This document shows, in pieces, positions 1 through 12,610 of a stretch of 12,610 bases of DNA. This DNA is from a virus (taxonomy: Duplodnaviria > Heunggongvirae > Uroviricota > Caudoviricetes). The stretch spans positions 1 through 12,610 of IMG/VR virus record IMGVR_UViG_3300029060_000171, one strand, 5' to 3'. Each line of letters opens with the position of its first letter. The first letter of the stretch is position 1. The position numbers and the translations under genes are program-made. The notes beneath the pieces were generated by a model. It was not told the origin of the DNA, did not search any database, and worked only from the letters and a program-made list of their open reading frames with translations.

Positions 1-327
1 CTTCAGAGAACCCGTAATTATTCCCGGTAGTTTTCCTCTGTAGGTTATCAACACATCCTGCGCCTCTAAAATTACGGGGCGCTTTTCCGGCGACTGCTCA
101 TCCCCTTCACATAACCCGGCAGCAACATCCAGGAAGACCTGTCTGATGCTCCTTCTGGCTGCTGCCTCATAAAACTCCAGCGCGGCACCTTCAACACGGT
201 CCAGCGAGATGTCCAGGTCAAAAATTTCACCGTCAAAGCGTTTTTTGTCCCGTAACGCTAAAGTTACCGTAACTTTATTCTCAAAATTGCGGATCCCTTT
301 CACAATCAGTTCATAGTTTTGAGTCAT
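1..327 (-). CDS. uncharacterized phage lysis-cassette protein, C-terminus truncated by window edge (109 codons visible; N-term MTQNYELIVKGIRNFENK)
   Basis: ATG at 327..325 on minus strand with GGGGAGAG Shine-Dalgarno about 7 nt upstream. Frame stays open to position 1. Starts 5 bp after the holin stop. N-terminus is not hydrophobic, so this is not a SAR endolysin. It occupies the holin-to-endolysin slot where DUF1327/YdfR-type genes sit in Qin-type cassettes; that family assignment is from memory and unverified. Confidence 0.55.
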   Translation of the reverse strand, partial: MTQNYELIVKGIRNFENKVTVTLALRDKKRFDGEIFDLDISLDRVEGAALEFYEAAARRSIRQVFLDVAAGLCEGDEQSPEKRPVILEAQDVLITYRGKLPGIITGSLK

Positions 328-331
328 TGAA

Positions 332-547
332 TTACTCTCCCCGTGCAGCCTTACGACGGTCCTCTCTGATTTTGAAATACAGGTTAGTCAGATATGTCAG
401 CAGCCCAAACAGCAGACTCCCCAGCACGCCTATTGCCGCCCACTGAGACGGGGAAACCCTGTCCAGCAACTGCAGGAACCAGTAGCCCGTTCCCACCGCT
501 GACGTGGTGTATGACACACCTGTTGTGATTTTTTCCATCTGGTACAT
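332..547 (-). CDS. S: class II holin, phage 21 S21-type pinholin (71 aa; 68-aa form from internal Met-4)
   Basis: Translation [71 protein letters not shown] is near-identical over most of its length to the phage 21 pinholin as I recall it ([22 protein letters not shown]...[22 protein letters not shown]). Two in-frame Met codons three codons apart (M1, M4) match the antiholin/holin dual-start design. GGGAG Shine-Dalgarno upstream of M1. Confidence 0.85.
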
Positions 548-622
548 ACCCCGTCTCCCGCAATCCGGAAGCTCACAACAACAAGTGGGGCATCAGCTCA
601 CACCGACACCCCCTGCGCATGG

Positions 623-868
623 TTACATCATCATTTCGCTGTCAGGTGTGGGTTCACCGCCATCTGAAGCACTCCCGTCACCCGCGATACCTTCCGGCTC
701 CAGAACCGCTGGTACGCCCAGCAGCTCATCCAGAATGGCATCCACTTCTGCATCAAGACGCGCCTCAAGGTTCTGGCGGAGTTTCTGTTTCAGTGCGCTC
801 AGGACTTCTTCAGAGCGCAGGACTTCCTTCACTGCCTCAGCAGTGACCAGGGATGTGATTTCTGACAT
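623..868 (-). CDS. small acidic helical protein of unknown function (81 aa, MSEITSLVTAEAVKEVLRSEEVLSALKQ...)
   Basis: The six-frame track gives 623..1042, but the first ATG with a plausible context is at 868..866; the longer form has no start signal. Highly acidic C-terminal tail. Sits between the esterase and the holin. Start and reality both uncertain. Confidence 0.4.
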   Translation of the reverse strand: MSEITSLVTAEAVKEVLRSEEVLSALKQKLRQNLEARLDAEVDAILDELLGVPAVLEPEGIAGDGSASDGGEPTPDSEMMM

Positions 869-905
869 GGGATTTTCTCGTTGAAAGGTGTTGTCAAGAA
901 AGTGA

Positions 906-1088
906 CTACGGAATGAGCGGATCTTCGGGTTTGCTTCCGGCTGACTGACTGGCGCTGATTCTCTCAGCGGCCCTTTTATCAATCTGCCTGCGCCAGAAAT
1001 CGCGCACTGCCCTGTACCCACCCGAAAGAAGATACATAACACAGACTGCCGTACAGAAGTACAGCATCACCTGATGAATAAATGTCAT
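906..1088 (-). CDS. small putative membrane protein (60 aa, single N-terminal hydrophobic helix then basic tail)
   Basis: ATG at 1088..1086. N-terminal stretch IHQVMLYFCTAVCVMYLL is transmembrane-like. No strong Shine-Dalgarno, so low confidence. Confidence 0.3.
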   Translation of the reverse strand: MTFIHQVMLYFCTAVCVMYLLSGGYRAVRDFWRRQIDKRAAERISASQSAGSKPEDPLIP

Positions 1089-1185
1089 AATTTCTTACCG
1101 TTATGGTTGACAATGAGAACTGTTTTCATTTAAAAAACCGATATACGAAAGCATCTTTTCTTTACATTCTCCATTGGGATTACCT

Positions 1186-1223
1186 CCGCCAGCTTCCATT
1201 CCTGCCGCTGGCGGCCTTTTTTT
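1186..1223 (+). terminator. strong plus-strand intrinsic terminator: 8-bp GC stem CCGCCAGC/GCTGGCGG (1186..1193 / 1207..1214) followed by CC and T7
   Basis: Perfect inverted repeat followed by a T7 run at 1217..1223 on the plus strand. It directly abuts the stop codon (1225..1227) of the minus-strand esterase gene. On the minus strand the hairpin has no U-tract, so it is effective only against plus-strand (antisense) transcription. Confidence 0.5.
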
Positions 1224-1224
1224 A

Positions 1225-3186
1225 TCATGCCGCGGCATCCGCGTTGTTCACTTCCACCTTCACACTGTCAATCAGCAGCGTATATGTCGCCGCCTTTGAT
1301 ATGCCTGTCAGTTGCAGTTTGTCCGCCGCCCCTGATGCCGGAGATTTCACCAGTGTGAACGGCGTCCCCCGTTTCTCATCCAGTACCGGCGTCACCTGAA
1401 TGCTGTTGTTTCCGGCAAACTCAAAAGCCAGTGTGTGCCATCCGTTATCAAAGACCCCGAACGTATCCAGCTTCGCATTCGGCTTCTTGTGGTGCATCGC
1501 GTTCAGGTTCGTCGCATCCGTCTGCAGGAAGAAGGACATCAGCATGTCGTTGCCTTCCTCTGCCAGCGTCACTCCCTCCGGCAGGGACGACAACTGCCAG
1601 TAAATGCCCAGGGCAAACTGATTCGGCACCAGTGAACCCGGCAACTTAAACCGTACGCTCACACGTCCTCCTTTCTTCAGCAACTCTGCCCCCTGCCCGG
1701 CTGCATCATGCTCCAGAAACCAGATGTGGTTTTCCGGTTTATTCAGTTGCAGGGCCTTACCTCCCGTAGCCCCCGCATCACTGACCACCGCTTCAGCAAT
1801 GTTTTTGTTAACATTGTCTCCGCTCGCCGGTTTGTGATAATAGCGCCAGCCCTGTGATGCCAGGTCTTCGCCGGACGCCAGCAGACTCATCAGGGTTCGG
1901 TTACTGACCGGACCTTCCGGCTCTCTCTCCGTACCTTCACCGGAAGGTCCGGTGGGCTTCACCGTATCAGGCTGTTTTCCGGTAATGAATTCAGCGGTTC
2001 TCCCGGCATGCACAAGAATCGCCGTTGCCAGACGGTCGGAAATAATCCCACGACGTGCCCATGATCCAAAATGCGTTTTACGGTCAGCCGTCGTCCAGGT
2101 TTTGGCGTCCGTTCGACCACCGGCTCCGTAATACCCAATATCCGCAACATCCGGATCTTCTGACGGCTCGTTGGTACCCACATTTCGCCCGTTTTCATCC
2201 GTCATAAACGGCACAAAGAAGATTTTTTTTGCGGATTTCGTCTTATATGCACCATACACCGCATCGTATTGCGAAGAATAAGTCTGCTTCCAGTAGTAGG
2301 TCGTGTCGCCACAAATCCAGGGAACTGATGACGGAGAGCCCCCGAGACACTGACCTCCGAATTCCGACAGGTCAGAACGATATTTTTCCACCATGGAATC
2401 AAACAGCCCCGGCTGAGTGGCGTATGCACCCTGTTTCAAATCAAACTCGCCCTGCATCCAGACCACTGCAAGCAGAATATTTTTAGGGTTGGCCTTCAGT
2501 GCGGCCTGAGTACGGGTAAGCAGGTCCTTGTACAGTGGCTTATCTACACCCCAGCGTGCCGAGGTCTCGCTTGCGCCGGTGGATTCGCTGAAGGTACCTT
2601 CATCGCCCGCCAAAAATGCAGAACCACCACGGCAGCACGGAACCAGAAGAATACCGGCATTCGCCGGAATAAACGGCAACAATTTCTTCGCGATATGTAA
2701 TCCCTGCCCCACGCATCCATACTGAGCTGCGCTGGCTTTCGGGTGTGAAAACTTACTCAAATCCTGAACATCATGCAGGCAGTGGTCCGCAGGAATAATG
2801 TCATTGTAGTTACAGGACGCACCACCCGGCGTGACAGTGCTGCGACGCGCCAGCTGTTTAATACGCGGGTCCGGACGGTCATATGTCTCCGGCAGCGGAA
2901 GCCCTTCACCATACGCCATACCGTTTGACTGCCCGGCCAGGGCAACAACAAAGTAATACTCCGGGTTGCTGGTAGTGCTGATAACTGCGCCTTCTCCATC
3001 CGACGACTTCACCACCACAGGTGTGGTGACATCACCTTCCGCCGTAATGGCCTGCATCAGGGTATAAGGCGTGATGGCCACCGGACTGCCAAATGGCTGC
3101 CACCCCTCCTTCAGTTTTTGTGTCAGTCGTTTCGCAAGGTCTGACGGCGATGCCGCCCTGACCACGTCATAGTGTTTAAATGCCAT
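1225..3186 (-). CDS. nanS-p: prophage NanS-p-type sialate O-acetylesterase (9-O-acetyl-N-acetylneuraminate esterase): N-terminal DUF1737-like region, central SGNH/sialate-esterase-like domain, C-terminal lectin-like region; 653 aa
   Basis: ATG at 3186 with GGGAGGA Shine-Dalgarno 4 nt upstream. Size and layout match the 640-660-aa esterases found downstream of the tRNA/stx position in EHEC lambdoid prophages. Family call is by recall of that architecture, not by alignment. Confidence 0.75.
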   Translation of the reverse strand: MAFKHYDVVRAASPSDLAKRLTQKLKEGWQPFGSPVAITPYTLMQAITAEGDVTTPVVVKSSDGEGAVISTTSNPEYYFVVALAGQSNGMAYGEGLPLPETYDRPDPRIKQLARRSTVTPGGASCNYNDIIPADHCLHDVQDLSKFSHPKASAAQYGCVGQGLHIAKKLLPFIPANAGILLVPCCRGGSAFLAGDEGTFSESTGASETSARWGVDKPLYKDLLTRTQAALKANPKNILLAVVWMQGEFDLKQGAYATQPGLFDSMVEKYRSDLSEFGGQCLGGSPSSVPWICGDTTYYWKQTYSSQYDAVYGAYKTKSAKKIFFVPFMTDENGRNVGTNEPSEDPDVADIGYYGAGGRTDAKTWTTADRKTHFGSWARRGIISDRLATAILVHAGRTAEFITGKQPDTVKPTGPSGEGTEREPEGPVSNRTLMSLLASGEDLASQGWRYYHKPASGDNVNKNIAEAVVSDAGATGGKALQLNKPENHIWFLEHDAAGQGAELLKKGGRVSVRFKLPGSLVPNQFALGIYWQLSSLPEGVTLAEEGNDMLMSFFLQTDATNLNAMHHKKPNAKLDTFGVFDNGWHTLAFEFAGNNSIQVTPVLDEKRGTPFTLVKSPASGAADKLQLTGISKAATYTLLIDSVKVEVNNADAAA

Positions 3187-3368
3187 GAATCCTCCCGGCC
3201 GGGATAATATTGTGAGTAAAATAAGGAGCGGGCTGAAGTCCGGAAGTTACAGGACAATGGCAGAAGAGAGACGACAGCCCGCAATTCGAAAAAGACCGCG
3301 CAGTTGCGCAGCCTTATGAATTCTGGTTAAAATCCATTCGATTATAAAAATGTATATCTCATGCTGTT

Positions 3369-3425
3369 GCCCGAACCCACTCGGGCTTTTTTTTGCCCAC
3401 AAGAAAGCCCCTCCGGAGAGGGGCT
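3369..3425. terminator. pair of opposed hairpins: plus-strand terminator GCCCGA-ACCCAC-TCGGGC + T8 (3369..3394), and an 8-bp perfect hairpin AGCCCCTC-CGGA-GAGGGGCT (3406..3425) that on the minus strand is followed by UUCUUGU
   Basis: Both inverted repeats were read directly. The first is a textbook plus-strand terminator. The second is a possible weaker minus-strand terminator. Located in the tRNA-to-esterase intergenic region. Confidence 0.45.
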
Positions 3426-3639
3426 AAAGCCGCGTATCTGTATCATCATGCACATGATGCCGGGTGCCTCCCGGTGAGTTCAGTATCAGCACCTGAACCC
3501 GCACAGAAAGGATAAGGGGCGGTGACAAAACACCAGTTGCTGATTGCCCCTCCGCACAGGGGGATTCACCATGCCAGTTTCTTTTAACAAACTCCCCGCA
3601 AAACAGACAACTGTCAACCGTCTGAATTGTGAGACATTT

Positions 3640-3667
3640 AAAAAAAAGCCCGCAAAAGCGAGCCGGG
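3640..3667 (-). terminator. intrinsic terminator immediately downstream of the tRNA trio (minus strand: stem GCUCGC/GCGGGC, loop UUUU, then U8)
   Basis: The plus strand reads A8-GCCCGC-AAAA-GCGAGC; on the minus strand that is a 6-bp stem (one G-U pair) plus an 8-U tract, 12 nt after the 3' end of the last tRNA. Confidence 0.55.
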
Positions 3668-3678
3668 AAAAATAAGTC

Positions 3679-3755
3679 TGGCGCGTTGTACTGGATTCGA
3701 ACCAGTGACCGATTGCTTAGAAGGCAATTGCTCTGTCCGGCTGAGCTAATAACGC
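3679..3755 (-). tRNA. tRNA-Arg (anticodon UCU), CCA encoded
   Basis: Reverse complement folds as a cloverleaf: acceptor GCGTTAT/ACAACGC (one mismatch), D-arm GCTC..GAGC, anticodon stem ATTGC/GCAAT with loop CTTCTAA, T-arm ACTGG-TTCGAAT-CCAGT, then G-CCA. Matches the argO/argN-type rare-codon tRNAs carried next to Q in Stx-like phages. Confidence 0.8.
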
Positions 3756-3768
3756 AGGGTACAGATAA

Positions 3769-3845
3769 TGGACCGCCTTCGGGGACTCGAACCCCGCGCA
3801 ACCAGCTTCGAAGGCTGGCGCTCTTTCCTGATGAGCTAATGGCGG
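3769..3845 (-). tRNA. tRNA-Arg (anticodon UCG), CCA encoded
   Basis: Cloverleaf with anticodon stem CCAGC/GCTGG and loop CTTCGAA, T-arm CGGGG-TTCGAGT-CCCCG, acceptor CCGCCAT/AAGGCGG (one mismatch; unusual C1). The fold was read by hand, so the anticodon call is less certain than for the flanking tRNAs. Confidence 0.65.
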
Positions 3846-3852
3846 TATGTGA

Positions 3853-3928
3853 TGGTGGCCCTTGCTGGATTTGAACCAGCGACCTGGCGATTATGAGTCG
3901 CTCGCTCTCACCACTGAGCTAAAGGGCC
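3853..3928 (-). tRNA. tRNA with CAU anticodon, most likely tRNA-Ile2 (lysidine type, ileX/ileZ-like) rather than tRNA-Met
   Basis: Sequence GGCCCTTTAGCTCAGTGGTGAGAGCGAGCGACTCATAATCGCCAGGTCGCTGGTTCAAATCCAGCAAGGGCCACCA differs at only a handful of positions from E. coli tRNA-Ile2 (ileX) as I recall it. Anticodon loop CTCATAA. Confidence 0.8.
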
Positions 3929-3956
3929 GAGCCAAAAAATAATAATCAGATGAAAA

Positions 3957-4670
3957 TCAATAATCAAGCCCTTGCCTGGATACATATCTGTCTGGCGGGA
4001 AGCCATAATAGCGGTGAAATACAGAAATAAAGTAGGACCTGCTTGAATAACCGCATTTTTCTGCTATAGCCTGTCCATATCCATGCCGGGAACATAACAT
4101 ATTTACAGCAACACGCATCCGCTCTTCCAGCAACAAGCGACTGAACATGCCCCCTTCATTTTTCAGTTTTGTCTTTAACAAACTCTCACTCATATGCAAC
4201 TGTAGAGCAATCGCACCAAGCGTCCAGCTTGCTGATATATCTGTCTGAATTATCGCCCTGACTTTGGCACTTATGCTGGATAAACATCCACTTAAAAACA
4301 ATGACATCCGTTCATCTGTTTCAAACAGAGACAGGCAGGCCATCATAAGAAACATATCCGTGGCCTCTCCGGAAAATCCCTGGCTGGTAATTAAAGCCGC
4401 AGCCAACGCAGGATTGTTGGGTTCCAGCAACAGGTAAAGCGGAATGTCAGTCAGACGAGTCCTCGTCAGCTTATGCTGACTTTCCAGATATTGACTTACG
4501 ACGGATTCGCTTATATCGACAATTTTAACTTTGCCATAATGCATAAGGAAAAGCTCCCTGATGCATTTGGTGGCCAGAACAACTGAGCCTGGCTTAAGTG
4601 ACAACGTATCCTTTTCAAGAAAAATATTAATTGGGGAGCAAACCATGATAACTGAACAGACAACAGCCAT
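3957..4670 (-). CDS. AraC/XylS-family transcriptional regulator (237 aa), prophage cargo
   Basis: C-terminal 100 aa carries the two-HTH AraC signature (WTLGAIALQLHMSESLLKTKLK...YGQAIAEKCGYSSRSYFISVFHRYYGFPP). AT-rich codon usage. A perfect TATAAT (minus strand, at 4706..4711) lies about 35 nt upstream of the ATG. Could belong to the prophage-encoded AraC-like regulators reported in EHEC (Psr/PatE type), but I cannot confirm identity. Confidence 0.8.
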   Translation of the reverse strand: MAVVCSVIMVCSPINIFLEKDTLSLKPGSVVLATKCIRELFLMHYGKVKIVDISESVVSQYLESQHKLTRTRLTDIPLYLLLEPNNPALAAALITSQGFSGEATDMFLMMACLSLFETDERMSLFLSGCLSSISAKVRAIIQTDISASWTLGAIALQLHMSESLLKTKLKNEGGMFSRLLLEERMRVAVNMLCSRHGYGQAIAEKCGYSSRSYFISVFHRYYGFPPDRYVSRQGLDY

Positions 4671-4790
4671 TATAATTTTACTTTCATTAGCAATTGGTTA
4701 GCTCAATTATAGCCCCAAAAGGTAAATTATCATCAACACATAAGCAAAGGACTGACAGGTGTCGCCCCCCCACCAGCCGCCCATTCACCA

Positions 4791-4818
4791 CAAATAAAAA
4801 GCCTTCAGGACTGAAGGC
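4791..4818 (-). terminator. intrinsic terminator overlapping the stop codon of the 65-aa ORF (stem GCCTTCA/TGAAGGC followed on the minus strand by UUUUUAUUUG)
   Basis: Perfect 7-8-bp inverted repeat at 4801..4818, with an A-run on the plus strand at 4791..4800 (a U-run on the minus strand). Confidence 0.5.
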
Positions 4819-5002
4819 GTCTGTAACAACCGCACTGATAGTCTGCCAGACCCGCCATAACAAGCTGGGTCAGTATTAACTGGCAGCGTTCGCGTGAAAG
4901 GTAAGTATTCTGCGCAATCTCCCCGACTGTCGCCGGTTCGGTAACGCTTAATTCATCAAACACAACTCTGGCGGTTTCTGTCATATCCTGCTGTTTCAGC
5001 AT
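4805..5002 (-). CDS. small HTH/winged-helix-like protein of unknown function (65 aa)
   Basis: ATG at 5002 with GGAAAGGG about 9 nt upstream. Segment VGEIAQNTYLSRERCQLILTQLVMAGL looks like an HTH recognition helix. Ends in its own terminator. Confidence 0.45.
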   Translation of the reverse strand: MLKQQDMTETARVVFDELSVTEPATVGEIAQNTYLSRERCQLILTQLVMAGLADYQCGCYRRLQS

Positions 5003-5122
5003 GTCTTTTTACCCTTTCCGGTTAACGTGACATACCAATAACTCTTGTCTAAAAAGCCAGCAAGATAAAAAGCCAGTATTCACGACCACCAGCGTGTTTA
5101 CTGTACTGCACCAAGTTTACAG

Positions 5123-5150
5123 GTACAAAAAACCCGCTCAGTGGCGGGTT
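5123..5150 (-). terminator. intrinsic terminator about 130 nt downstream of the 205-aa gene (minus strand: AACCCGC-CACUGA-GCGGGUU then UUUUGU)
   Basis: 7-bp stem read directly at 5131..5150; U-rich tract on the minus strand. Confidence 0.55.
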
Positions 5151-5280
5151 TAAGTTGTGTGGCGAAGTAACCACTCTTAACACACTAATAGCATTTTTGT
5201 TATAACACAAGTAACTCATTCAGTATTTTTAGAATCTTGACTTTCTTAAGCACGGCGAACTCTGAATACCAAACATAAAA

Positions 5281-5898
5281 TCAATTATCTTCCAGGCCGG
5301 ATGCTATCAACGAAAGCCTCTCAAAAAACGCTGTAGCAGCCTTGTCCAAAGTTGAATAAGTACTGTATTCTCCGTGTTCGGGACCAACCACTACCCATGG
5401 TCGTCTTTTTGGGATTCGGGACTTCTCAGAAATCACTGTTCCAGATATACCAATATCAATTGTTACACCTGTTATTATTTTCTCTTCATCTCTTTCCCTG
5501 AACTCAATTGCCATAAATGCCGTTTTTTTTCGTTTCCCGTTTTTAAAAAAATCAAATAAAGCAAAGCGATGCTCATTAAAATCAACACCCCATCGTCCTT
5601 CAGGATAAAGGGCATGAAAGTTGTCATTTACGCTCTGCATCGTCTCATAAGCTTTAACTTCTAAATCTCCATAGTGCATAGATACCGCGCAGGAGTCACT
5701 GGGTAACTGTATTTTCCCAAGATTGAAAACCTTTACTGCTCCAGAACTATGGCATCTTGCCCGCAATTTATCCCCATTTATACTAATCGGAGAAATATTC
5801 CTTAATGTTCCGGGCTGGCTCCCTCCTAAGTAAACGACTGTTAAAGATTGCTTATTTTCAATTGCATCAACTAATACATGCTCTACATTTTTATCCAT
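5281..5898 (-). CDS. hypothetical protein, 205 aa, no recognisable family; AT-rich orphan cargo gene immediately downstream of Q
   Basis: The track ORF 5281..5925 starts at an ATG with no Shine-Dalgarno (it is preceded by CCUCC). The in-frame ATG at 5898..5896 has a GGGAGG Shine-Dalgarno 5 nt upstream, so MDKNVEHVLVDAIENK... is the likely start. Flanked by a 5' hairpin and a 3' terminator. Confidence 0.7.
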   Translation of the reverse strand: MDKNVEHVLVDAIENKQSLTVVYLGGSQPGTLRNISPISINGDKLRARCHSSGAVKVFNLGKIQLPSDSCAVSMHYGDLEVKAYETMQSVNDNFHALYPEGRWGVDFNEHRFALFDFFKNGKRKKTAFMAIEFRERDEEKIITGVTIDIGISGTVISEKSRIPKRRPWVVVGPEHGEYSTYSTLDKAATAFFERLSLIASGLEDN

Positions 5899-5900
5899 AA

Positions 5901-5935
5901 TAACCTCCCAATGAACAGGTATCATCAGGAGGTTA
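5901..5935 (-). promoter_or_regulatory. Shine-Dalgarno-sequestering hairpin in the 5' leader of the 205-aa gene (mRNA: UAACCUCC - 19-nt loop - GGAGGUUA - UU - AUG)
   Basis: Perfect 8-bp complementarity between 5928..5935 and 5901..5908. The downstream arm is the Shine-Dalgarno itself, and the start codon begins 2 nt after the stem. Confidence 0.5.
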
Positions 5936-5973
5936 TAATAAAATATGATTATTTACTTTGATTGAATTTATTA

Positions 5974-6345
5974 CTATATGTAACAATCAATTTCTAAAGA
6001 TACCCCCAACATTGCCAGACAACCGTCAATAAACCCTTCAGCTTTCTGCAGTCTGATAACAACCTGATTAAGTGATATCCCCAGTTTTACCCCCAACACC
6101 CGTAATGTAACCCCATACACATAATACATTTCCAGTAATTCGTATTGATACGGTTCCTTTTTCTTAAGAACTGTCATCGCAGAGCTAATGATCAGGCCAT
6201 CGTCATCGCTACATTGCGGGCGGGATTTTACTTTCGAAGGAATTAATCCCTTAAAACCTGCAGCAACAGATGACCATTCCACATCCTCGTGATTATTTGC
6301 CACCCATGCCCCCCAACGTTCAAGAACCATTTGAATATCACGCAT
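5974..6345 (-). CDS. Q: late-gene antiterminator Q, QuuD/phage-82 type (about 123 aa)
   Basis: N-terminus MRDIQMVLERWGAWVANNHEDVEWSSVAAGFKGL matches my recollection of DLP12 QuuD / Q82-family proteins; the C-terminus is sigma-region-4-like. ATG at 6345 with GGAGAAA Shine-Dalgarno; the track ORF extends to a TTG at 6360. Confidence 0.75.
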   Translation of the reverse strand: MRDIQMVLERWGAWVANNHEDVEWSSVAAGFKGLIPSKVKSRPQCSDDDGLIISSAMTVLKKKEPYQYELLEMYYVYGVTLRVLGVKLGISLNQVVIRLQKAEGFIDGCLAMLGVSLEIDCYI

Positions 6346-6362
6346 CAACTTTCTCCACAAAA

Positions 6363-7358
6363 TCAGGCCAGCACGCCTATTGCCAGCGCACGATCGATAA
6401 AACGAAATATCAGCTCCAGCTGGGAGCCATACTTCTCTTCAAATGCCACGGTATCCGCATGCAGCTCGTCGTGATGCTTTCTGCACAAAGGCAGCACGAA
6501 GAGGTCATGCGCTTTTGTACCCATTCCCCCCTGACCGTGGCCTATCAGGTGGTGGGGATCATCAGCAGGCTTTCCACAACATGCACACGGCTGCGTCTTA
6601 ACCCAGCGCGTGTACTTTTCATTAACCCAGCGGCGACGTTTGGGGCGTAACATAAAAGACTCCGGCGACTCCGGATCCACTTTCAGCGCCAGCACCTTTT
6701 TCGCTTTATCCTGGATGATGCTGGTGGCAGGAACCGAAGGCACAAGGTCACTTTCCCGGGTGACAGACGGCACAACAGGCTTCGGTAATCTCAGTGCCTT
6801 ACGGGCTGCACTTTCCGGTAAGGCATCCGCCAGGTCATTACGAATCAGCCACCAGCACAGTTCCGGCATTGTCACAACGTGACTGTCATCAAAACCGAGA
6901 TCCCGACGCACAACAGACAACACCCAGCGGGCACAGTTATCCGTTGCCATTGATTCCAGCCGTTCCGTGAACTGATCGCGCAGCTGGTTATCGCAGTGCC
7001 AGCACAGACGGATTGCACCCGGAGCGTGTCGCATTGTGGTCATGTTCTCGCTGTGCCATCCGGAATGAGGCCACTGGCAGCCTTTTTCACGAAGTAACCA
7101 GCTTTCAAGACATTCCACGCCACCAGCACGACGGATCACTGCCTCATGGCGGAACACGGCCCGAACGGCAGGATCATCCGCCAGCGGTTGTGATGCCGCC
7201 GGAACGGCACCACTGGCGAAAGATGAATAACGCTCCGGCTCAGGCTCCAGCAGGACACGCCCCTGCATAAACAGGGGCATCAGCTCTGAACCTGGCCTGA
7301 ACAATACGATCCCCATACGCGGGGCAATTTCAGGGGTCAGTAGTGCTCTCACAGTCAC
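6363..7358 (-). CDS. DUF968-like (YdfU-like) nin-region protein with C-terminal Cys/His-rich HNH-like motif (331 aa)
   Basis: C-terminus CACCGKPADDPHHLIGHGQGGMGTKAHDLFVLPLCRKHHDELH. Position just upstream of Q matches ydfU in Qin-type prophages. Start is a GTG directly after the KilA-N stop; exact start uncertain. Confidence 0.65.
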   Translation of the reverse strand: MTVRALLTPEIAPRMGIVLFRPGSELMPLFMQGRVLLEPEPERYSSFASGAVPAASQPLADDPAVRAVFRHEAVIRRAGGVECLESWLLREKGCQWPHSGWHSENMTTMRHAPGAIRLCWHCDNQLRDQFTERLESMATDNCARWVLSVVRRDLGFDDSHVVTMPELCWWLIRNDLADALPESAARKALRLPKPVVPSVTRESDLVPSVPATSIIQDKAKKVLALKVDPESPESFMLRPKRRRWVNEKYTRWVKTQPCACCGKPADDPHHLIGHGQGGMGTKAHDLFVLPLCRKHHDELHADTVAFEEKYGSQLELIFRFIDRALAIGVLA

Positions 7359-7359
7359 C

Positions 7360-8175
7360 TCAATGAACGGTATCGAGCAGCTTTAACAGCTCAGGAAATC
7401 GGGATTCGAAGAAATGCGGCTGCGTCTCGCGCGGATTTGCAGGACTGGTGATGTTCTTGCCGAACATGCAGCCTTTCGCGGTCAGCGACCAGAATTTTTT
7501 GATGTTGTTAATCGCGGTACGGCTGTATCGTTCGCGTTGTTCAACGATCCCCAGCTTCGCCATCTGGTGATATGCCTGATTAGCCGTCAGGCGGATACCA
7601 TACTGCTTCAGCAGTGCACTCAGCGACAGCGTAGGGCGGCTTGAACCATCTGGCGCATCAGCAGGTGCATCAATGGCATAGATCGGCATAAGTTCAGGAA
7701 GACCAGCTACCTTTGATAATTTCTGGTATGCACCAAGTTTCGAGGAGTTTGACAGATTTAGAGTCTTTGCTGCTGATTCAAGCAGAATGACCCCGGATTT
7801 AATTTTGTCGGATGTGGTTTCTTCTGGTGATGAATTATGAAGCGCATCAAAAGTACGTATCACTTTTAAGCTGAATGCCGGGCTGATCCACATTGCATAT
7901 GCATAGACCAGCTCTTTACAGACATACGTCCCACCATTGCGCCCCTGAATGGTGATGACAGGAATACTACGGGAATCTCCCGTAGTTTCTTCTTCCAATA
8001 ATTCCACAAGAGCCTTCGTTTCAGGACGACGCATAAACTCGTGAACTTCCAGCGAACGGGAGGAGCGATTCTCACCAGCGGCAAGAAGAGCAGCTTTCTG
8101 AAGGTCGTTAAGACAGTAGTTAGATTCGAAGTACTGGCGCACAGAAACGCCATCAATTACAAGCAACTGATTCAT
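7360..8175 (-). CDS. KilA-N domain protein (antirepressor/Roi-like), about 271 aa
   Basis: N-terminal 100 aa end in the KilA-N signature GGTYVCKELVYAYAMWISPAFSLKVI. ATG at 8175 with GGAGAAA Shine-Dalgarno (the track start at 8187 is a GTG). A 150-bp upstream intergenic region contains a LexA box. Confidence 0.7.
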   Translation of the reverse strand: MNQLLVIDGVSVRQYFESNYCLNDLQKAALLAAGENRSSRSLEVHEFMRRPETKALVELLEEETTGDSRSIPVITIQGRNGGTYVCKELVYAYAMWISPAFSLKVIRTFDALHNSSPEETTSDKIKSGVILLESAAKTLNLSNSSKLGAYQKLSKVAGLPELMPIYAIDAPADAPDGSSRPTLSLSALLKQYGIRLTANQAYHQMAKLGIVEQRERYSRTAINNIKKFWSLTAKGCMFGKNITSPANPRETQPHFFESRFPELLKLLDTVH

Positions 8176-8272
8176 TGGTTTCTCCACAAATTTTTATCCA
8201 CGAGCGGGACTGCACTCCCTTTTCGTTGATGCAGGATGAACTTACTGCGATTTTTAATAGTTATCAAGGATA

Positions 8273-8292
8273 CACTGTTCATAAATACAGTA
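8273..8292. promoter_or_regulatory. SOS box (LexA operator) CACTGTTCATAAATACAGTA in the RusA/KilA-N intergenic region
   Basis: Perfect CTGT-N8-ACAG core with AT-rich spacer and flanking A/TA, matching the E. coli LexA consensus TACTGTATATATATACAGTA. Followed on the minus strand by TTGATA - 17 nt - TAAGTT, a possible promoter. About 100 nt upstream of the KilA-N start. Confidence 0.5.
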
Positions 8293-8337
8293 TCTTTAAC
8301 GAGGTAATACCCAAATTTAGGGTGTTGCTCAATTCCG

Positions 8338-8733
8338 TTACCGAGTTGCTAATTTGCAACTCGCTTTTTCGTACTTACTGATAGTGATCTCGACCTTCCC
8401 CTCCGGGATAACCGGTCCCCACTCCACCAGCATTCTTTTCACCTGACTGTCGTCTTCCCACACACCCGCGTGGGTCAGGGCGTCAAACAGCGCCTTGTTA
8501 TAGTTGTCCAGATCGCGGATCCGGTTATCCGGAGGAAACAACACGATCTCCACTGAAGCAGGTGCCGACGTTGGTTTCGGCAGACGACGTAACTGCTCAA
8601 CTATTGCTGCACACGCCGCGCTCTGGAATTTTCGCCCCGCCGCGCTTATCAGGCTCTTACCAGCAAACGCCCCTTTGTTGGGGTGTCGCCAGTACGTGTT
8701 CACGCTGGGCGGAAAAGGCAGTATTAGCTTCAT
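8338..8733 (-). CDS. rusA: RusA-family Holliday junction resolvase (131 aa)
   Basis: N-terminus LPFPPSVNTYWRH and central RDLDNYNKALFDALTHAGVWEDDSQV match the RusA signature (PWPPS.N.YYRH ... RDLDN..KA.FDALTKAGFW.DD.QV). ATGA overlap with the upstream gene. Confidence 0.85.
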   Translation of the reverse strand: MKLILPFPPSVNTYWRHPNKGAFAGKSLISAAGRKFQSAACAAIVEQLRRLPKPTSAPASVEIVLFPPDNRIRDLDNYNKALFDALTHAGVWEDDSQVKRMLVEWGPVIPEGKVEITISKYEKASCKLATR

Positions 8734-9056
8734 ACTTTCAGGCCCCTCTCATGTAACCAGTGGGTTGCACGCAGCCTTGCGTTTTCCTCACCGGCAAGCA
8801 GTGCGCGGATAATCCCGACCGCCTCGCTGTCGTCGTCCTTCATCGCAGTATGAAGCGTTATCCCCCGGGCCACGCCACGCTTTATCGTGATGACGCCTTT
8901 TTTCTCCAGTGCGCGAAGATGCTCCACCGCTGCATTCACCGAACGGTATCCCAGCATGGTTGCCACCTCCTGATTGGTTGGCGGGAAGCCACGTTCTTTC
9001 TGATAAGAAATCAGCATATCCAGCACCTGCTGCTGGCATTGAGTTAACGTCGTCAT
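8730..9056 (-). CDS. LexA N-terminal DNA-binding-domain-only protein (108 aa; no S24 peptidase domain)
   Basis: LTQCQQQVLDMLISYQKERGFPPTNQEVATMLGYRSVNAAVEHLRALEKKGVITIKRGVARGITL parallels LexA residues about 1-70 ([55 protein letters not shown]). The protein ends 40 aa later with no Ala-Gly cleavage / Ser-Lys catalytic region. Confidence 0.7.
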   Translation of the reverse strand: MTTLTQCQQQVLDMLISYQKERGFPPTNQEVATMLGYRSVNAAVEHLRALEKKGVITIKRGVARGITLHTAMKDDDSEAVGIIRALLAGEENARLRATHWLHERGLKV

Positions 9057-9706
9057 GCCGCCATCTCCCTGACCAGTTTTTCCGCCTGCTGGCGAACCTG
9101 CGCCAGAAACGCCTCACCACATGCCTCAAGTTCATCGCGCCCTATGTAGCTGATTGCCGGTCCCTTCCAGGTCTTGTCGAAAACAGCAATAGCACCAGCG
9201 AAGAAAGCACCTGTTGGCACCTGCTTTTCGTCTTTCGGGATAAACCAGGCAGGCAGTTCAAAACCAATACGCCCGCGAATAAAAGCAATATGATCTGCAT
9301 CTTCCGGCCACCACACTTCGCTGGTGGCAGCTTTGATCAGGAAAACATAGCGCCCGCCTTTATCACGCATGGCACTGGCATGCTTCATGATGTAACGCAT
9401 GCCTGTGATGTATTGCCCCTCATGCTGACTGGCGCGGCTGTACGGGGGATTACCAAAGGCAGCACCTTTAAGCTCCGCAAGACGTTCAGACCAGTCATGC
9501 GCCAGCGCGTTGTCTTCCGCAGTGTAATAAGCGGCACATTTGGCGTTATCACCATCAGTGAACAGATCCAGAACAAACGGGCCAAACAGGGTGTTAATTC
9601 CCCAGAAAATGTTGTCCGGCGTGCGCCACTGATCGCCCACTTCCTTCAGTTCATGGGCTGGTTTGTTCCGCAGCTCCACCAGCGCCTGGCAATATTTATT
9701 ACTCAT
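9053..9706 (-). CDS. phage-type DNA N6-adenine methyltransferase (Dam family), 217 aa
   Basis: Motif GNPPYS (the NPPY/DPPY catalytic motif) in a protein of the size and position typical of lambdoid nin-region Dam methylases. ATG at 9706 with GGGGG Shine-Dalgarno (the track start at 9739 is a GTG). Confidence 0.85.
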   Translation of the reverse strand: MSNKYCQALVELRNKPAHELKEVGDQWRTPDNIFWGINTLFGPFVLDLFTDGDNAKCAAYYTAEDNALAHDWSERLAELKGAAFGNPPYSRASQHEGQYITGMRYIMKHASAMRDKGGRYVFLIKAATSEVWWPEDADHIAFIRGRIGFELPAWFIPKDEKQVPTGAFFAGAIAVFDKTWKGPAISYIGRDELEACGEAFLAQVRQQAEKLVREMAA

Positions 9707-10200
9707 TAAGCCCCCACGTAATTCCCTGACAGATACCACTCTTCACCCGATGCAGCGCGCTTGCTGCTTTTCCGTAAGCACCGCTCACGATGCGCCAGAA
9801 AATTGTTTCGTTCTGGCTGGGAGTGGCTTTCACGGAATGCCTCCATCCACACCGTTGCAGCTCGACGGAATAAGCCCCTGGACTCCAGTTCTTCCGCCTG
9901 GCGAGTCAGGCACAAAATCACCTGCGGGTCGTTAGTGCCGACACAGAAATTGCGCACAGGTCTGGTTTCACGAACTGGTTGTGGTTCCGGCTCCTGTGCT
10001 CTCTCAGTCAGGCGCGGGAAATGTCTGCGTGTATCTCCTTCACAACGGTGAGCCACACGCCCACTCTGACGTAACTTGCTTGCTGACTGCAGAACGCGCT
10101 GCCGTGAGTAACCTGCAAAAGCATCCGCAATGTCTCCGGAAGTACACCCCGGATGGGCTTCAATGAATTTCTGAACTTCATTCAAAAGACTCATGATCAC
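9706..10200 (-). CDS. PerC-family-like protein (YfdN-like), 164 aa: N-terminal HTH-like region plus C-terminal PerC-like motif
   Basis: C-terminal AEELESRGLFRRAATVWMEAF...ERNNFLAHRERC resembles the PerC/Pch motif (LE..GLWRRAA..W ... RR..C) as I recall it. Same size and Dam-adjacent position as yfdN in CPS-53. Assignment unverified. Confidence 0.55.
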   Translation of the reverse strand: MIMSLLNEVQKFIEAHPGCTSGDIADAFAGYSRQRVLQSASKLRQSGRVAHRCEGDTRRHFPRLTERAQEPEPQPVRETRPVRNFCVGTNDPQVILCLTRQAEELESRGLFRRAATVWMEAFRESHSQPERNNFLAHRERCLRKSSKRAASGEEWYLSGNYVGA

Positions 10201-11015
10201 CCCCTGAATCCTGCCGGGATCTGGCTGTAGTCCACGTTGTCGTAACTGGCTTTGAAGTACGGGTCCTCGCGTCTGGCTGCAGATACCGCAGGAACTTCCC
10301 AGGATTCTTCGAAATGACGATCCGGACCAAAGAACGTGACAGCCTGTTTCACAAATTGTGTGCCGCTGTTACCCATCGCAGATACCCAGCCCGCGTAGCG
10401 TTTCACACCTTCCAGCATGGTTTCGGGTTTTACCCCCTCATTCAAACGGGCTTTCCAGGCTTTGAAGGCTGCAGATTTTGAATTGCCACCAGCACGTTTT
10501 GGATAGGCCAGCCATGCCTGCTCAAACTCCGGAGAGTATTCCGGTCGGTTTGAACGAACTCGCACAGACTCATCAGCAGATGCACCAACAGCTATTGGTT
10601 CATTGACTGGTTCTTTGACTGGTTCAAAAGAGTGACTGGTTCTGGGTGAATCTCCTGCACTACCCCCTGGTGCAACTCCTGCACTACCTGGTGAATTTGC
10701 TGCACCAGATAGTGAATTATTTGCACTACCCCCTAGTGAATCTCCTGCACCATCAAGATGAAGGAGATAGATATTACTTGAGTTACCTTTTTCACCTTTC
10801 CGGGTGACTTTTTTTACCAGCCCGGACTCACAAAGGGCCGCAATATGATTCATCACAGAACGTTTGCTAATCTCGCACTGGTCAGCAATATGCTGGTAGC
10901 TGGGCCAGCACTCACCCTGATCGCTGGCATTATCAGCCAGCTTAATCAGAACCAGTTTTCGCAATGGATTTCCCACTCGAATTTTCATCGCTTTAACCAT
11001 CAACTCCATACTCAT
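10197..11015 (-). CDS. replication initiator / replisome organizer (lambda O-like: N-terminal HTH domain, low-complexity linker encoded by iterons, conserved C-terminal domain), 272 aa
   Basis: N-terminal LRKLVLIKLADNASDQGECWPSYQHIADQCEISKRSVMNHIAALCESGLV is replisome-organizer HTH-like. C-terminal PEFEQAWLAYPKRAGGNSKSAAFKAWKARL is like the conserved phage replication-protein C-terminus. The central Gly/Ser/Ala/Pro linker is encoded by direct repeats. GGAGGTG Shine-Dalgarno. Confidence 0.75.
   Translation of the reverse strand: MSMELMVKAMKIRVGNPLRKLVLIKLADNASDQGECWPSYQHIADQCEISKRSVMNHIAALCESGLVKKVTRKGEKGNSSNIYLLHLDGAGDSLGGSANNSLSGAANSPGSAGVAPGGSAGDSPRTSHSFEPVKEPVNEPIAVGASADESVRVRSNRPEYSPEFEQAWLAYPKRAGGNSKSAAFKAWKARLNEGVKPETMLEGVKRYAGWVSAMGNSGTQFVKQAVTFFGPDRHFEESWEVPAVSAARREDPYFKASYDNVDYSQIPAGFRG
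10603..10757. repeat. putative origin of replication: five 21-25-bp iterons with internal dyad GTGAA/GTGCA-N5-TGCAC (10646..10757) plus three TGACTGGTTC repeats (10603..10642), all inside the O-like gene
   Basis: Direct repeats read from the sequence: GTGAATCTCCTGCACTACCCCCTG / GTGCAACTCCTGCACTACCTG / GTGAATTTGCTGCACCAGATA / GTGAATTATTTGCACTACCCCCTA / GTGAATCTCCTGCACCATCAA. AT-rich stretches flank the array. Analogous to ori-lambda iterons within O. Confidence 0.6.
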
Positions 11016-11236
11016 GCAGCACCTCCGAGATGCTTCATGTTTTTTCCGGAGCGAAAGGCTATAAGCGGCATACTGACGCGGTAATTACGGCCCAGCGGTT
11101 CACAAATCACCTTCTGACATTCACGGTCAACCAGGCTAACACGTAGAACATGCCCTGCAGGCGTGGTGTACCACTGACCCGGACGAGGACAACGGAAAGT
11201 ATGATTGGTAAACCGTTTGAAAATATTCCGGATCAT
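11012..11236 (-). CDS. small Cys-containing protein of unknown function (74 aa)
   Basis: ATG overlaps the Rha stop (ATGA) and is preceded by AGGGGG Shine-Dalgarno. Its stop overlaps the O-like start. A diverged homolog is encoded upstream at 11779..12105 (shared MIRNIFK.FTN and PG..YT..A). Confidence 0.45.
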   Translation of the reverse strand: MIRNIFKRFTNHTFRCPRPGQWYTTPAGHVLRVSLVDRECQKVICEPLGRNYRVSMPLIAFRSGKNMKHLGGAA

Positions 11237-12105
11237 TTACGCCCCCTTACCTCTGAAGGGTTCAGCGACAAATTTATGAGACTGGCCAGTAGCGCCGCGT
11301 CGTTGATGCGGTCATACAGACTTACAGCCAGCGGGGATTCGGCTTTTGCCAACATGGGATAAAGCTGCTGCAGCCAGACCTTGTGGATTACCGACAGGTG
11401 GGAGTAAAGCACGCTGGCGTTATCTGCGGCATCGCTCAGCGTGGATGGCTTTGAAAGCAGTTTTTCCATCTGGTTAAAGGCATTGATGTATGCCTCTTTG
11501 AACCGGGCAGCACGTTTACCCGTGAAACCCATAGCAAGAAACGCAAAGCCGTCGCGGGTTATTTGATAGCAAGGTAGTTTGCGGCCTGTGCAATCGGTGT
11601 AATCACTCACCGAAAAATTGCGGGCAGTGAATGATGCAGAGCATTCAAGCGTGCGGATCTTTTTCAGTACATCGTCATGACGTTTGGAGAAGAAGTTGGC
11701 AACAGCCAGGGATGAAGTAACAGCCTGACCATCAACGATGGCAATTTCAGGTTGAGTGAGGGTTGGGATCGTAGCCATGATGGCAGCCTCTTTGGTGATT
11801 TTTAATAACTCACCACCAAGGCTTTCCACGACCTTATTGGTGGTGAGACGTACAGGGGTGGAAATACCGGTCACCAAAGAACCCGGCCCAACCGAAGTTG
11901 GCCCTGCACGCCCCACCATAATTTGGGCGTAACGATGCTCATGACACGAAAAAACCGCATGAGCGCGGTTGTGCTCTATATTGAATTTCGGGTTTCCACG
12001 CCCGGCACCCGCTTTATAAGGTGCCTGAACAGTGTAACGTCCCGGAATTGCAGAATCAATATGCTGGTGGCGATTGGTAAACAGTTTGAAAATATTCCGG
12101 ATCAT
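11233..12105 (-). CDS. rha: Rha-family phage regulatory protein. The Rha domain is 11233..11778 (181 aa, own AAAGAGG Shine-Dalgarno and ATG at 11778); the ORF continues in frame upstream to an ATG at 12105, adding 109 aa homologous to the 74-aa small ORF.
   Basis: TSSLAVANFFSKRHDDVLKKIRTLE ... GRKLPCYQITRDGFAFLAMGFTGKRAARFKEAYINAFNQME is the Phage_pRha signature. Whether the product is a 290-aa fusion or two proteins cannot be decided from sequence. Confidence 0.7.
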   Translation of the reverse strand: MIRNIFKLFTNRHQHIDSAIPGRYTVQAPYKAGAGRGNPKFNIEHNRAHAVFSCHEHRYAQIMVGRAGPTSVGPGSLVTGISTPVRLTTNKVVESLGGELLKITKEAAIMATIPTLTQPEIAIVDGQAVTSSLAVANFFSKRHDDVLKKIRTLECSASFTARNFSVSDYTDCTGRKLPCYQITRDGFAFLAMGFTGKRAARFKEAYINAFNQMEKLLSKPSTLSDAADNASVLYSHLSVIHKVWLQQLYPMLAKAESPLAVSLYDRINDAALLASLINLSLNPSEVRGRK

Positions 12106-12610
12106 TTACGCCCCCTTACCTCTGAAGGATTCAGCGACAAATTTATGAGGCAGGCCAGCGCCGAAGCATCATTAATATAGTCATACAAGCTAACAGCCAG
12201 CGGAGATTCGGCTTTTGCCAACATAGGATAAAGCTGCTGCAGCCAGACCTGATGAATTGATGAAATGTAGGAATAGAGAACGCTGGCGTTATGTGCAACG
12301 TCGCTCGGTACAGCGGGCTTTGAAAGCTGTTTCTCCATCTGGTTAAAGGCATTGATGTATGCCTCTTTGAACCGGGCAGCACGTTTCCCCGTGAAGCCCA
12401 TGGCAAGAAACGCAAAACCGTCGCGGGTGATTTGGTAACAAGGGAGTTTGCGGCCTGATGCGTCGGTGTATTCACTTAACACAAAATTGTGTTCAGTAAA
12501 TTCAGCGGAACATTCGAGGTTTCTAATTCTATCTAAAACCCGCTCATGCCGTTTAGTAAAGTAATTAGCTACTGCAAGAGATGTGGTGACAACGCGACCA
12601 TTGATAATCG
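12073..12610 (-). repeat. second copy of a tandem paralogous duplication of about 868 bp (first copy about 11205..11778): Rha gene 3' portion plus the start of the following small ORF
   Basis: The two copies align throughout with frequent substitutions. They include identical runs such as CTGGTTAAAGGCATTGATGTATGCCTCTTTGAACCGGGCAGCACGTTT and the junction GTTTGAAAATATTCCGGATCATTTACGCCCCCTTACCTCTGAAGG. Confidence 0.7.
12102..12610 (-). CDS. rha: Rha-family phage regulatory protein, paralog 2, N-terminus outside window
   Basis: Frame is open from the window edge; translation ...TTSLAVANYFTKRHERVLDRIRNLECSAEFTEHNFVLSEYTDASGRKLPCYQITRDGFAFLAMGFTGKRAARFKEAYINAFNQMEK... is a diverged paralog of the first Rha protein. 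The track start at 12482 is a GTG inside the real ORF. Confidence 0.7.
   Translation of the reverse strand, partial: IINGRVVTTSLAVANYFTKRHERVLDRIRNLECSAEFTEHNFVLSEYTDASGRKLPCYQITRDGFAFLAMGFTGKRAARFKEAYINAFNQMEKQLSKPAVPSDVAHNASVLYSYISSIHQVWLQQLYPMLAKAESPLAVSLYDYINDASALACLINLSLNPSEVRGRK

Follow-up and report, generated by a model that had tools for sequence, protein, structure and literature searches.

A stretch of viral DNA of 12,610 nucleotides (nt) assigned to the Caudoviricetes (IMG/VR record IMGVR_UViG_3300029060_000171, positions 1 to 12,610; referred to below, at its full length, as the window) carries two paralogous genes of the Rha family, Rha1 and Rha2, and the 109 codons between them run without a stop into the second gene. 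This segment is likely to constitute an RNA-based immunity/antirepressor control cassette of the type represented by P1 c4, P4 CI, and Gifsy-1 IsrK, embedded in a long open reading frame (ORF) in frame with Rha2 in an eta/kil-like fashion, and tandemly duplicated. Several features are specific to this case: the cargo is a Rha gene, a leader of the Gifsy-1 orf45 type is fused to it in frame, the cassette resides before the replication genes of a lambdoid prophage, orthogonal modules follow each other in tandem, and the IsrK/C4 pair of one module is chimeric. None of the control elements described here—a promoter-like site, IsrK with its terminator, and C4 with its targets—had been seen in the initial annotation of the segment, which treated it as the coding sequence of a small protein.

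RNA genes inside the long reading frame

Two families of regulatory RNA exceed their Rfam gathering scores within the codons preceding Rha2 (Table 1), namely an IsrK-type small RNA (sRNA), the equivalent of the seqA region of P4, and, downstream of it, an antisense RNA of the C4/CI type. The first of these regions also gives a weak match to Rfam c4-a1b1 at 12037..11985, which at 22.8 bits remains below the gathering score of 46.7. The IsrK-type sRNA ends in an intrinsic terminator whose hairpin comprises 7 pairs, 4 of them G-C, followed by TTTTCG in the terminator scan. At a distance of 7 nt upstream of the IsrK start, promoter-like hexamers are found; an internal promoter is proposed on the grounds that these hexamers are kept in 35 relatives and align with TTGACA/TATATT of the Gifsy-1 promoter PisrK. 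The same pair of IsrK and C4 is detected by Rfam ahead of the single Rha gene of Escherichia coli O157:H7 F3113 and ahead of both Rha genes of E. coli S88.

The loops of the C4 RNA find complementary sites around the start of Rha2 and within IsrK. Loop a' pairs over 11 nt (one G-U) with the site a2, TCACCAAAGAG, which overlaps the Shine–Dalgarno (SD) sequence GAGG of Rha2, so that the pairing extends across this SD. Loop b' pairs over 7 nt both with b2 (11829-11823) and with b1, a GTGGAAA located in IsrK (11999-11993). The pairing of a' and b' with a2 and b2 is the design of P1 c4 and P4 CI. Folding of the 255-nt region 12024..11770 yields a free energy of -105.9 kcal/mol (z = -5.46), and the fold recovers the C4 structure and encloses the SD and the AUG of Rha2 within a hairpin.

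At many loci (L117, L126, L151, and L178 are examples), proteins encoded downstream of C4 that are otherwise unrelated, namely Rha, P4 Kil, and proteins of about 150 amino acids (aa), begin alike with MAT(I/T)PT. The conserved control cassette includes the first codons of these genes (GAGGCTGCCATCATGGCTAC).

Covariation of the fold and of the loop–target pairs

Two pattern scans of public collections recovered 134 unique loci with 103 distinct C4 cores, distributed over Enterobacterales and Pseudomonas. When the 103 distinct cores are placed on the Rfam structure, 97.9% of the pairs are canonical, as opposed to 33-45% in shifted controls, and compensatory, double-sided changes occur at 11 of the 27 pairs. 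The contacts between loops and targets are likewise conserved as contacts: complementarity of at least 7 nt connects b' with its own downstream site in 98% and with its own upstream site in 97% of loci (non-self sites, 8-9%), and a' with its own downstream site in 73% and its own upstream site in 67% (non-self sites, 7-9%).

These data bear on the view that Ash is a folded N-terminal domain of a true two-domain Ash–Rha regulator and that the Rfam matches are incidental. The leader of the long ORF indeed matches Pfam Phage_ASH (52.6 bits, aa 24-120), both Phage_ASH and PHROG 821 model the long form, PGAP annotates Rha proteins of 383 aa, and proteins with Rha and Ash domains are listed for Eru-type Shiga toxin (Stx) phages, the function of Ash being given as unknown (PMC8951638). 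However, it is the fold and the loop–target pairs that covary, what is taken for a domain contains a terminator and a promoter-like site, variation at third codon positions is not in excess (see below), and the counterpart region of Gifsy-1 is closed by a stop codon and followed by an unrelated protein of the ORF6N type. A two-domain protein is accordingly regarded as highly unlikely, and the control cassette is retained as the likely explanation of the segment.

Proposed translation of the leader

On its own, the open frame is uncommon by chance, though not remarkably so: of dinucleotide-preserving shuffles of the 327-nt segment, 2.5% lack stops in frame 0 and 7.6% lack them in at least one frame. 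The Rha-linked leader, defined as the stretch from the ATG at the C4 5' end to the Rha ATG, was compared among relatives in 19 distinct versions. All 19 measure 138 or 141 nt and are in frame with Rha, their lengths differing in steps of 3 nt, and polymorphic stop sites number 0 in frame 0 as against 10 and 10 in the other two frames. Further upstream, in 22 of 27 distinct junction types, the ATG that opens the frame-0 ORF directly precedes the -35 hexamer, 150 nt or more ahead of C4, and in many cases an ATGA overlap couples it to a preceding ORF, which may be ymfL, an earlier Rha, or some other gene. The frame is kept at each of four different junctions (MIRNIFKLFTNR|HQHIDS, MIRN|QHIDS, MIR|YLNIDS, and MIVLQNIDS). 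Column variability at the first, second, and third codon positions amounts to 0.55, 0.59, and 0.57 in the leader and to 0.62, 0.63, and 0.66 in the IsrK region, compared with 0.51, 0.41, and 1.08 in Rha; the third-position excess is thus absent from the leader and from the IsrK region. The reading adopted here is that translating the leader matters and that the sequence of the peptide does not.

It could be argued instead that the leader is purely non-coding, with IsrK, C4, and the targets as its only functional contents and with a frame that is never translated, stays open through ancestry and G+C-rich stems, and is appended to Rha merely by annotation pipelines. Such an account would fit the lack of codon periodicity, the radical amino-acid changes caused by compensatory changes in the stems, the frequency at which one open frame of this length arises in shuffles, the presence of an intrinsic terminator inside the ORF, and the closure of the frame in most non-Rha C4 loci as well as in a few Rha loci. 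It is nevertheless considered improbable in view of the skew of polymorphic stop sites, none of the 20 falling in frame 0, the restriction of length changes to 3-nt steps, and the fact that independent junction types keep starts ahead of the promoter-like site, in many cases with an ATGA overlap; moreover, Gifsy-1 orf45, which overlaps C4, is translated (PMC4825925), and P4 Eta is described as translated (PMC10111431). The notion that the long frame is nothing but a spurious ORF, and Phage_ASH a spurious family, was dropped as the sole reading because of the depletion of stop sites, the conserved ATGA-coupled starts, and the precedent of P4 Eta.

Several observations weigh against a translated control cassette as set out here. 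The value attached to the stop-site skew, (2/3)^20 = 3e-4, applies if sites are independent, and the raw counts ignore phylogeny. Upstream of C4, stop sites number 3 in frame 0 versus 17 and 9 in the other frames, a weak depletion, and many of the out-of-frame stops there fall within conserved motifs. The long frame is broken in some Rha loci (L044 module 3, L054, and L067) and in the L056 group. In C4 loci lacking Rha it is mostly closed, often by a TGA at +9 or by a TAA at +24 in a GNRA loop, and openness is for this reason not a property of the C4 RNA family as a whole. With respect to the RNA elements, the consensus promoter scan scores the TTGATT-17-TACACT site 8/12, which is below threshold, and does not call it. 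The IsrK a1 site of the window (TCAATATAGAGC, 11984-11973) matches the a' loop of its own C4 in a longest run of 5 nt, which means that one of the four canonical C4 contacts, a1/a', is missing in the window. Finally, the dynamics proposed below are modelled on P4, Gifsy-1, and P1, each mechanistic step being taken over by homology.

Tandem duplication and modular arrays

The initial annotation had recognized two Rha paralogs in head-to-tail order, and alignment agrees with this: Rha1 and Rha2 share 80% aa identity over 168 aa at a spacing of 869 bp. At the DNA level, a direct repeat (11203-11502 and 12072-12371) is 85% identical, again with a spacing of 869. The homology between the two copies reaches only 34 nt into the small ORF that follows each Rha gene, ending at TTTACCAATC (window position 12072), and the junction of the duplication is thereby placed between 12072 and 12071, inside the small ORF. 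The duplicated unit consists of the promoter-like site, IsrK, C4, Rha, and the first 34 nt of the next ORF, repeated in tandem. An assembly artefact, which had been named as a possible source of the repeat, was ruled out: 160 nt of junction sequence recur with 100% identity in 13 complete E. coli genomes, S88 and MS7163 among them, and S88 has the same two-module layout as the window. The duplication is therefore real.

The position of the junction also decides on the initial proposal that the 109-aa segment and the 74-aa protein encoded after Rha2 are diverged homologs, that the former has lost its stop and become fused to Rha, and that the small protein is a cII-like factor. What recommended this model was the common start MIRNIFK.FTN together with the shared ATGA and SD context; the DNA alignment ruled out the 109-aa segment as a homolog of the 74-aa ORF, since the resemblance is confined to the 34 nt preceding the recombination junction. 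The remainder of the segment, which carries RNA genes, has its homologs ahead of single-copy Rha genes and in the control regions of P4 and Gifsy-1. The 74-aa ORF itself corresponds over its full length to phrog_1153 (function unknown; E = 4e-45), is annotated as hypothetical in relatives, and has no match to a regulatory family; in Pfam it finds none even at E = 10, and nothing was thus found to support a cII-like role. A fusion of a small protein with Rha is hence scarcely credible. Of the suggestion that the locus gives rise to a long and a short product, the layout survives, as it resembles that of P4 eta/kil and recurs in most Rha-linked relatives, whereas the small-protein fusion does not. 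It had also been asked whether a stop or frameshift between the segment and Rha is ancestral; in most relatives no such interruption occurs, even though the segment serves chiefly for control by RNA.

The number of modules varies among relatives. Single-module relatives such as mEp460 and O157:H7 F3113 have one cassette after ymfL and an annotated Rha protein of 383 aa, the window and S88 have two modules each, and the IMG/VR locus L044 has three. In S88, a DUF4222 gene comes before module 1; its stop codon lies within the -35 hexamer, and its product matches phrog_1153 weakly (E = 0.0023). The three tandem IsrK-C4-Rha modules of L044 (IMGVR_UViG_2534682157_000011, 3700-6650) have three a' specificities. 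In Yersinia pekkanenii (locus L139), two C4 copies are located at 1839 and 2019, just 180 nt apart. In all 7 of the 7 distinct arrays, the modules differ in a', and each a' best matches its own a1 and a2, on account of which the modules of an array are regarded as orthogonal.

Module 2 of the window, which comprises the segment described here and Rha2, has a chimeric IsrK/C4 pair. The a1 site of its IsrK pairs over 12 nt (two G-U) with a' of L044 module 2, and it is also to the Rha protein of this L044 module that Rha1 is similar in its N-terminal half. The exact chimeric IsrK/C4 sequence gave 0 matches in viral contigs, and the best match in complete E. coli genomes was 98.1% identical. The RNA genes of module 1, which lie beyond the window, were not recovered, searches with 911-nt and 1599-nt queries giving only single-module loci matched in two pieces. 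A more speculative interpretation, to which little credence can be given at present, is that tandem arrays of 2-3 IsrK-C4-Rha modules are orthogonal RNA-gated antirepressor switches that can be rewired by recombination, and that the IsrK of module 2 may act on the C4 of module 1 or of a co-resident prophage and not fully on its own. If this holds, RNA would govern induction and replication in a hierarchy of modules or across prophages.

Proposed mode of action

By analogy with the known systems, transcripts from the putative internal promoter would yield the short IsrK, and read-through of its terminator would produce a leader from which C4 is released. Pairing of C4 with a2/b2 would then block the translation of Rha2, and transcription would as a result tend to end early, ahead of Rha2, the 74-aa ORF, and the O-like replication gene. 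This block may be relieved when IsrK pairs with the C4 region via b1/b', and the ribosomes thus admitted could start either at the AUG at 11919, giving an extended Rha of 228 aa, or at the AUG at 11778, giving the 181-aa Rha2. Transcripts arriving from upstream, in contrast to those from the internal promoter, would be translated through all 290 codons by coupling at the Rha1 stop; the RNA structures would be melted in the process, and expression would become insensitive to C4. The long product would be a by-product of this translation and not a functional two-domain protein.

Gene organization of the locus

Every gene of the Rha1/Rha2 region resides on the minus strand (Table 1). Both Rha proteins lie above the Pfam cut-off for Phage_pRha (PF09669), which is 29.9 bits, and Rha2 additionally matches PHROGs 821 and 518 as well as Ant-type PHROGs. 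As the initial annotation had stated, each Rha stop overlaps the start of the next ORF in an ATGA, both at 12105-12102 and between Rha2 and the 74-aa ORF, and a frame of 290 codons (12105..11233) continues uninterrupted into Rha2, whose own SD and ATG are retained. The ATG of the long frame (12105-12103) is preceded by AAGGGGG, and the SD of Rha2 occupies 11790-11787 upstream of the ATG at 11778. Rha1, the 290-codon frame with Rha2, the 74-aa ORF, and the O-like gene are predicted to form one translationally coupled chain, with the O-like gene last.

Table 1. Genes, RNA elements, and control sites of the Rha1/Rha2 region (window coordinates)
Feature	Position	Strand	Evidence and remarks
Rha1, upstream Rha paralog	12102..12610	-	5' end beyond the window; stop TGA 12104-12102; Pfam Phage_pRha, 108.7 bits
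Eta-like long ORF, 290 codons	11233..12105	-	109-codon leader, then Rha2 in frame; no internal stop
Duplicated 5' end of 74-aa ORF (ATGATCCGGAATATTTTCAAACTGTTTACCAATC)	12072..12105	-	Extent given by aligning the DNA of both copies
Promoter-like hexamers inside the long ORF	12031..12059	-	TTGATT 12059-12054, 17-nt spacer, TACACT 12036-12031
IsrK-type sRNA	11948..12024	-	Rfam RF01394, 61.6 bits (gathering score 50)
IsrK intrinsic terminator	11949..11970	-	Hairpin (AACCGCGCTCATGCGGTT) 11970..11953 and T run; terminator scan
C4/CI-type antisense RNA	11836..11923	-	Rfam RF01695, 83.6 bits (gathering score 45), full length 1-87
ATG at C4 5' end	11917..11919	-	Homolog of first start of Gifsy-1 orf45; in frame with Rha2 ATG, 47 codons downstream
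C4 loop a', TCTTTGGTGA	11880-11871	-	
C4 loop b', TTTCCAC	11864-11858	-	
Downstream C4 target region (seqC equivalent)	11788..11829	-	b2 GTGGAAA 11829-11823; a2 TCACCAAAGAG 11798-11788
Rha2, short nested gene, 181 aa	11233..11778	-	ATG at 11778; Pfam Phage_pRha, 107 bits
74-aa ORF	11012..11236	-	ATG overlaps Rha2 stop (ATGA); own stop overlaps O-like ATG
O-like replication initiator	10197..11015	-	Pfam HTH_36/DnaD_N; PHROG 270, replication initiation protein

Within the O-like gene, direct repeats are found at 10596-10750, comprising three units resembling GTGAAT.TCCTGCACTACC and two copies of TGGTTC(A/T)TTGAC; they encode a low-complexity stretch of the type GGSANNSL/GAANSPGS. These repeats may possibly be iterons of an origin situated within the initiator gene, as in lambda. 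The same early operon contains, on the minus strand, a PerC-family regulator of 164 aa (9706-10200) and a second gene of the Bro network, encoding a KilA-N domain protein of 275 aa (7360-8187).

Other genes of the window

The Q gene (5974-6360) is flanked on the minus strand by a 214-aa ORF without a Pfam match (5281-5925), and an AraC-family regulator of 237 aa (3957-4670, minus strand) is located between Q and three tRNA genes, Arg-tct, Arg-tcg, and Met (3679-3928, minus strand). The region downstream of Q further includes STnc100 (3395-3603, minus strand; 130.6 bits) and an anti-sRNA of the AsxR/AgvB type (3339-3393, plus strand), the latter scoring 63 bits, exactly at the gathering score. 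These are followed by a SASA/DUF1737 esterase (1225-3186) and a P21-type holin (332-547). The layout of this late region is typical of lambdoid prophages of enterohaemorrhagic E. coli; no stx gene was seen in the window.

Implications

A match to the control region, searched for together with short Rha flanks, is present in about one in four complete E. coli genomes (1273 of 5426). Current annotation gives only extended "Rha family" proteins, or pseudogenes, at positions that hold two genes for regulatory RNAs and a switch of the nested-gene kind. RefSeq, for example, lists the second Rha of S88 as a pseudogene "missing N-terminus" (locus L108, 3568-4422) and the single-copy gene as a 383-aa Rha (locus L001, 2187-3338), and neither locus has an annotated IsrK or C4 feature, though both reach Rfam gathering scores. 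The "Ash domain of unknown function" in the Rha/Ash proteins of Shiga toxin phages (PMC8951638) is accounted for as the IsrK/C4 control region. The cassette lies directly upstream of the replication initiator and is therefore a candidate gate on antirepressor and replication genes; in this way it could also control the induction of lambdoid prophages carried by pathogenic E. coli. Orthogonal modules in tandem suggest a modular way to diversify immunity specificity.

Comparison with known systems

In P4, an ORF of 199 open codons (8767..8168), whose ATGA start lies on the stop of ORF88, spans an isrK-like match (8692..8615) and a C4 match (8507..8420) and is in frame with the 65-codon kil gene, the initiation region of which (GAGGCTGCCATCATGGCTAC) is identical to that of Rha2; this Eta ORF matches the whole Pfam Phage_ASH profile with 82.4 bits. 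An internal constitutive promoter has been described for eta, the transcript being terminated via CI/seqA interactions and processed into CI RNA (PMC10111431, summarising Forti 1999), and Kil is a truncated, in-frame form of the translated Eta (PMC10111431). P4 and the window thus have in common a long ORF coupled by an ATGA to the gene upstream, a promoter (PLE in P4) or promoter-like site (in the window) inside this ORF, a seqA/IsrK element whose hairpin is followed by a T run, a C4/CI RNA, targets placed over the SD of a short in-frame gene, and a match to Phage_ASH. Despite these similarities, several differences exist. The nested short gene encodes a Rha-family regulator of 181 aa in the window and the 65-aa Kil in P4; the window derives from a lambdoid prophage and has its cassette just upstream of the O-like replication gene, unlike P4; about 80 additional nt separate seqA and CI in P4; and only in the window is the unit tandemly duplicated and the a1 site of IsrK non-cognate. 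At about 8570-8590, some 80 nt upstream of CI, P4 contains a partial copy of the CI 5' end (ATTATGGTGTGGTGTGTGG) that aligns with the C4 start position of the lambdoid and Gifsy-1 cassettes. For epsilon, PF10554 (Phage_ASH) is the profile listed in a survey of P4-like satellites (bioRxiv 10.1101/2021.03.30.437493). In P4 (locus L229), however, PF10554 matches the Eta/immunity-region ORF at 8168-8767, and epsilon (7888-8175) matches PF25738 instead, so that the epsilon marker of the survey probably detects the CI-RNA immunity region.

In Gifsy-1, Rfam places isrK at 34316..34240 and C4 at 34214..34131. IsrK has its own promoter and terminator and acts in trans on a long transcript, on which ribosomes translate orf45 in coupling with the antirepressor gene anrP; orf45 is conserved at the nucleotide but not at the amino-acid level, and compensatory mutations have validated the pairs G28-C162 and G31-C159 (PMC4825925, Hershko-Shalev et al. 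2016). The bases of these validated pairs are located in b1 and b'. At nt 107 of the transcript (34210), orf45 has its first AUG, which is part of ATGGTGGGG at the C4 5' end and aligns with 11919-11917 of the window. Both systems combine an IsrK that has its own terminator and a C4-like RNA (STnc1160 in Gifsy-1), overlapped by a leader ORF starting at ATGGTGGGG, with b1/b' pairing and a downstream gene of the antirepressor type. They differ in the way the leader is connected to this gene: orf45 ends in a UGA that overlaps the AUG of anrP, which corresponds to coupling by re-initiation, whereas the frame of the window enters Rha2 without a stop. In addition, AnrP has an ORF6N domain and is not a Rha protein, and the Gifsy-1 locus adjoins Q while the cassette of the window adjoins replication genes.

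The c4 RNA of the immI region of P1 and P7 belongs to the same Rfam family, RF01695, as the C4 of the window. In P1, c4 exposes loops a' and b', the a1/b1 sites lie upstream, and a2/b2 lie downstream over a ribosome-binding site, the gene under control being the antirepressor-type ant. A separate small gene, icd, is located between c4 and ant in this system.

Homologs of CI and seqA have also been noted inside the 'Bro' genes of phage-inducible chromosomal islands (PICI) (PMC10111431). The proteins described under Rha/Ash-type names, that is, the 383-aa Rha of PGAP, PHROG 821, the Rha/Ash proteins of Eru-type Stx phages, and PICI Bro, correspond to the same kind of ORF as that of the window. 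While Ash figures as a protein domain in the Stx-phage literature, in the window it is resolved into IsrK, C4, and their targets, arranged in tandem orthogonal modules.

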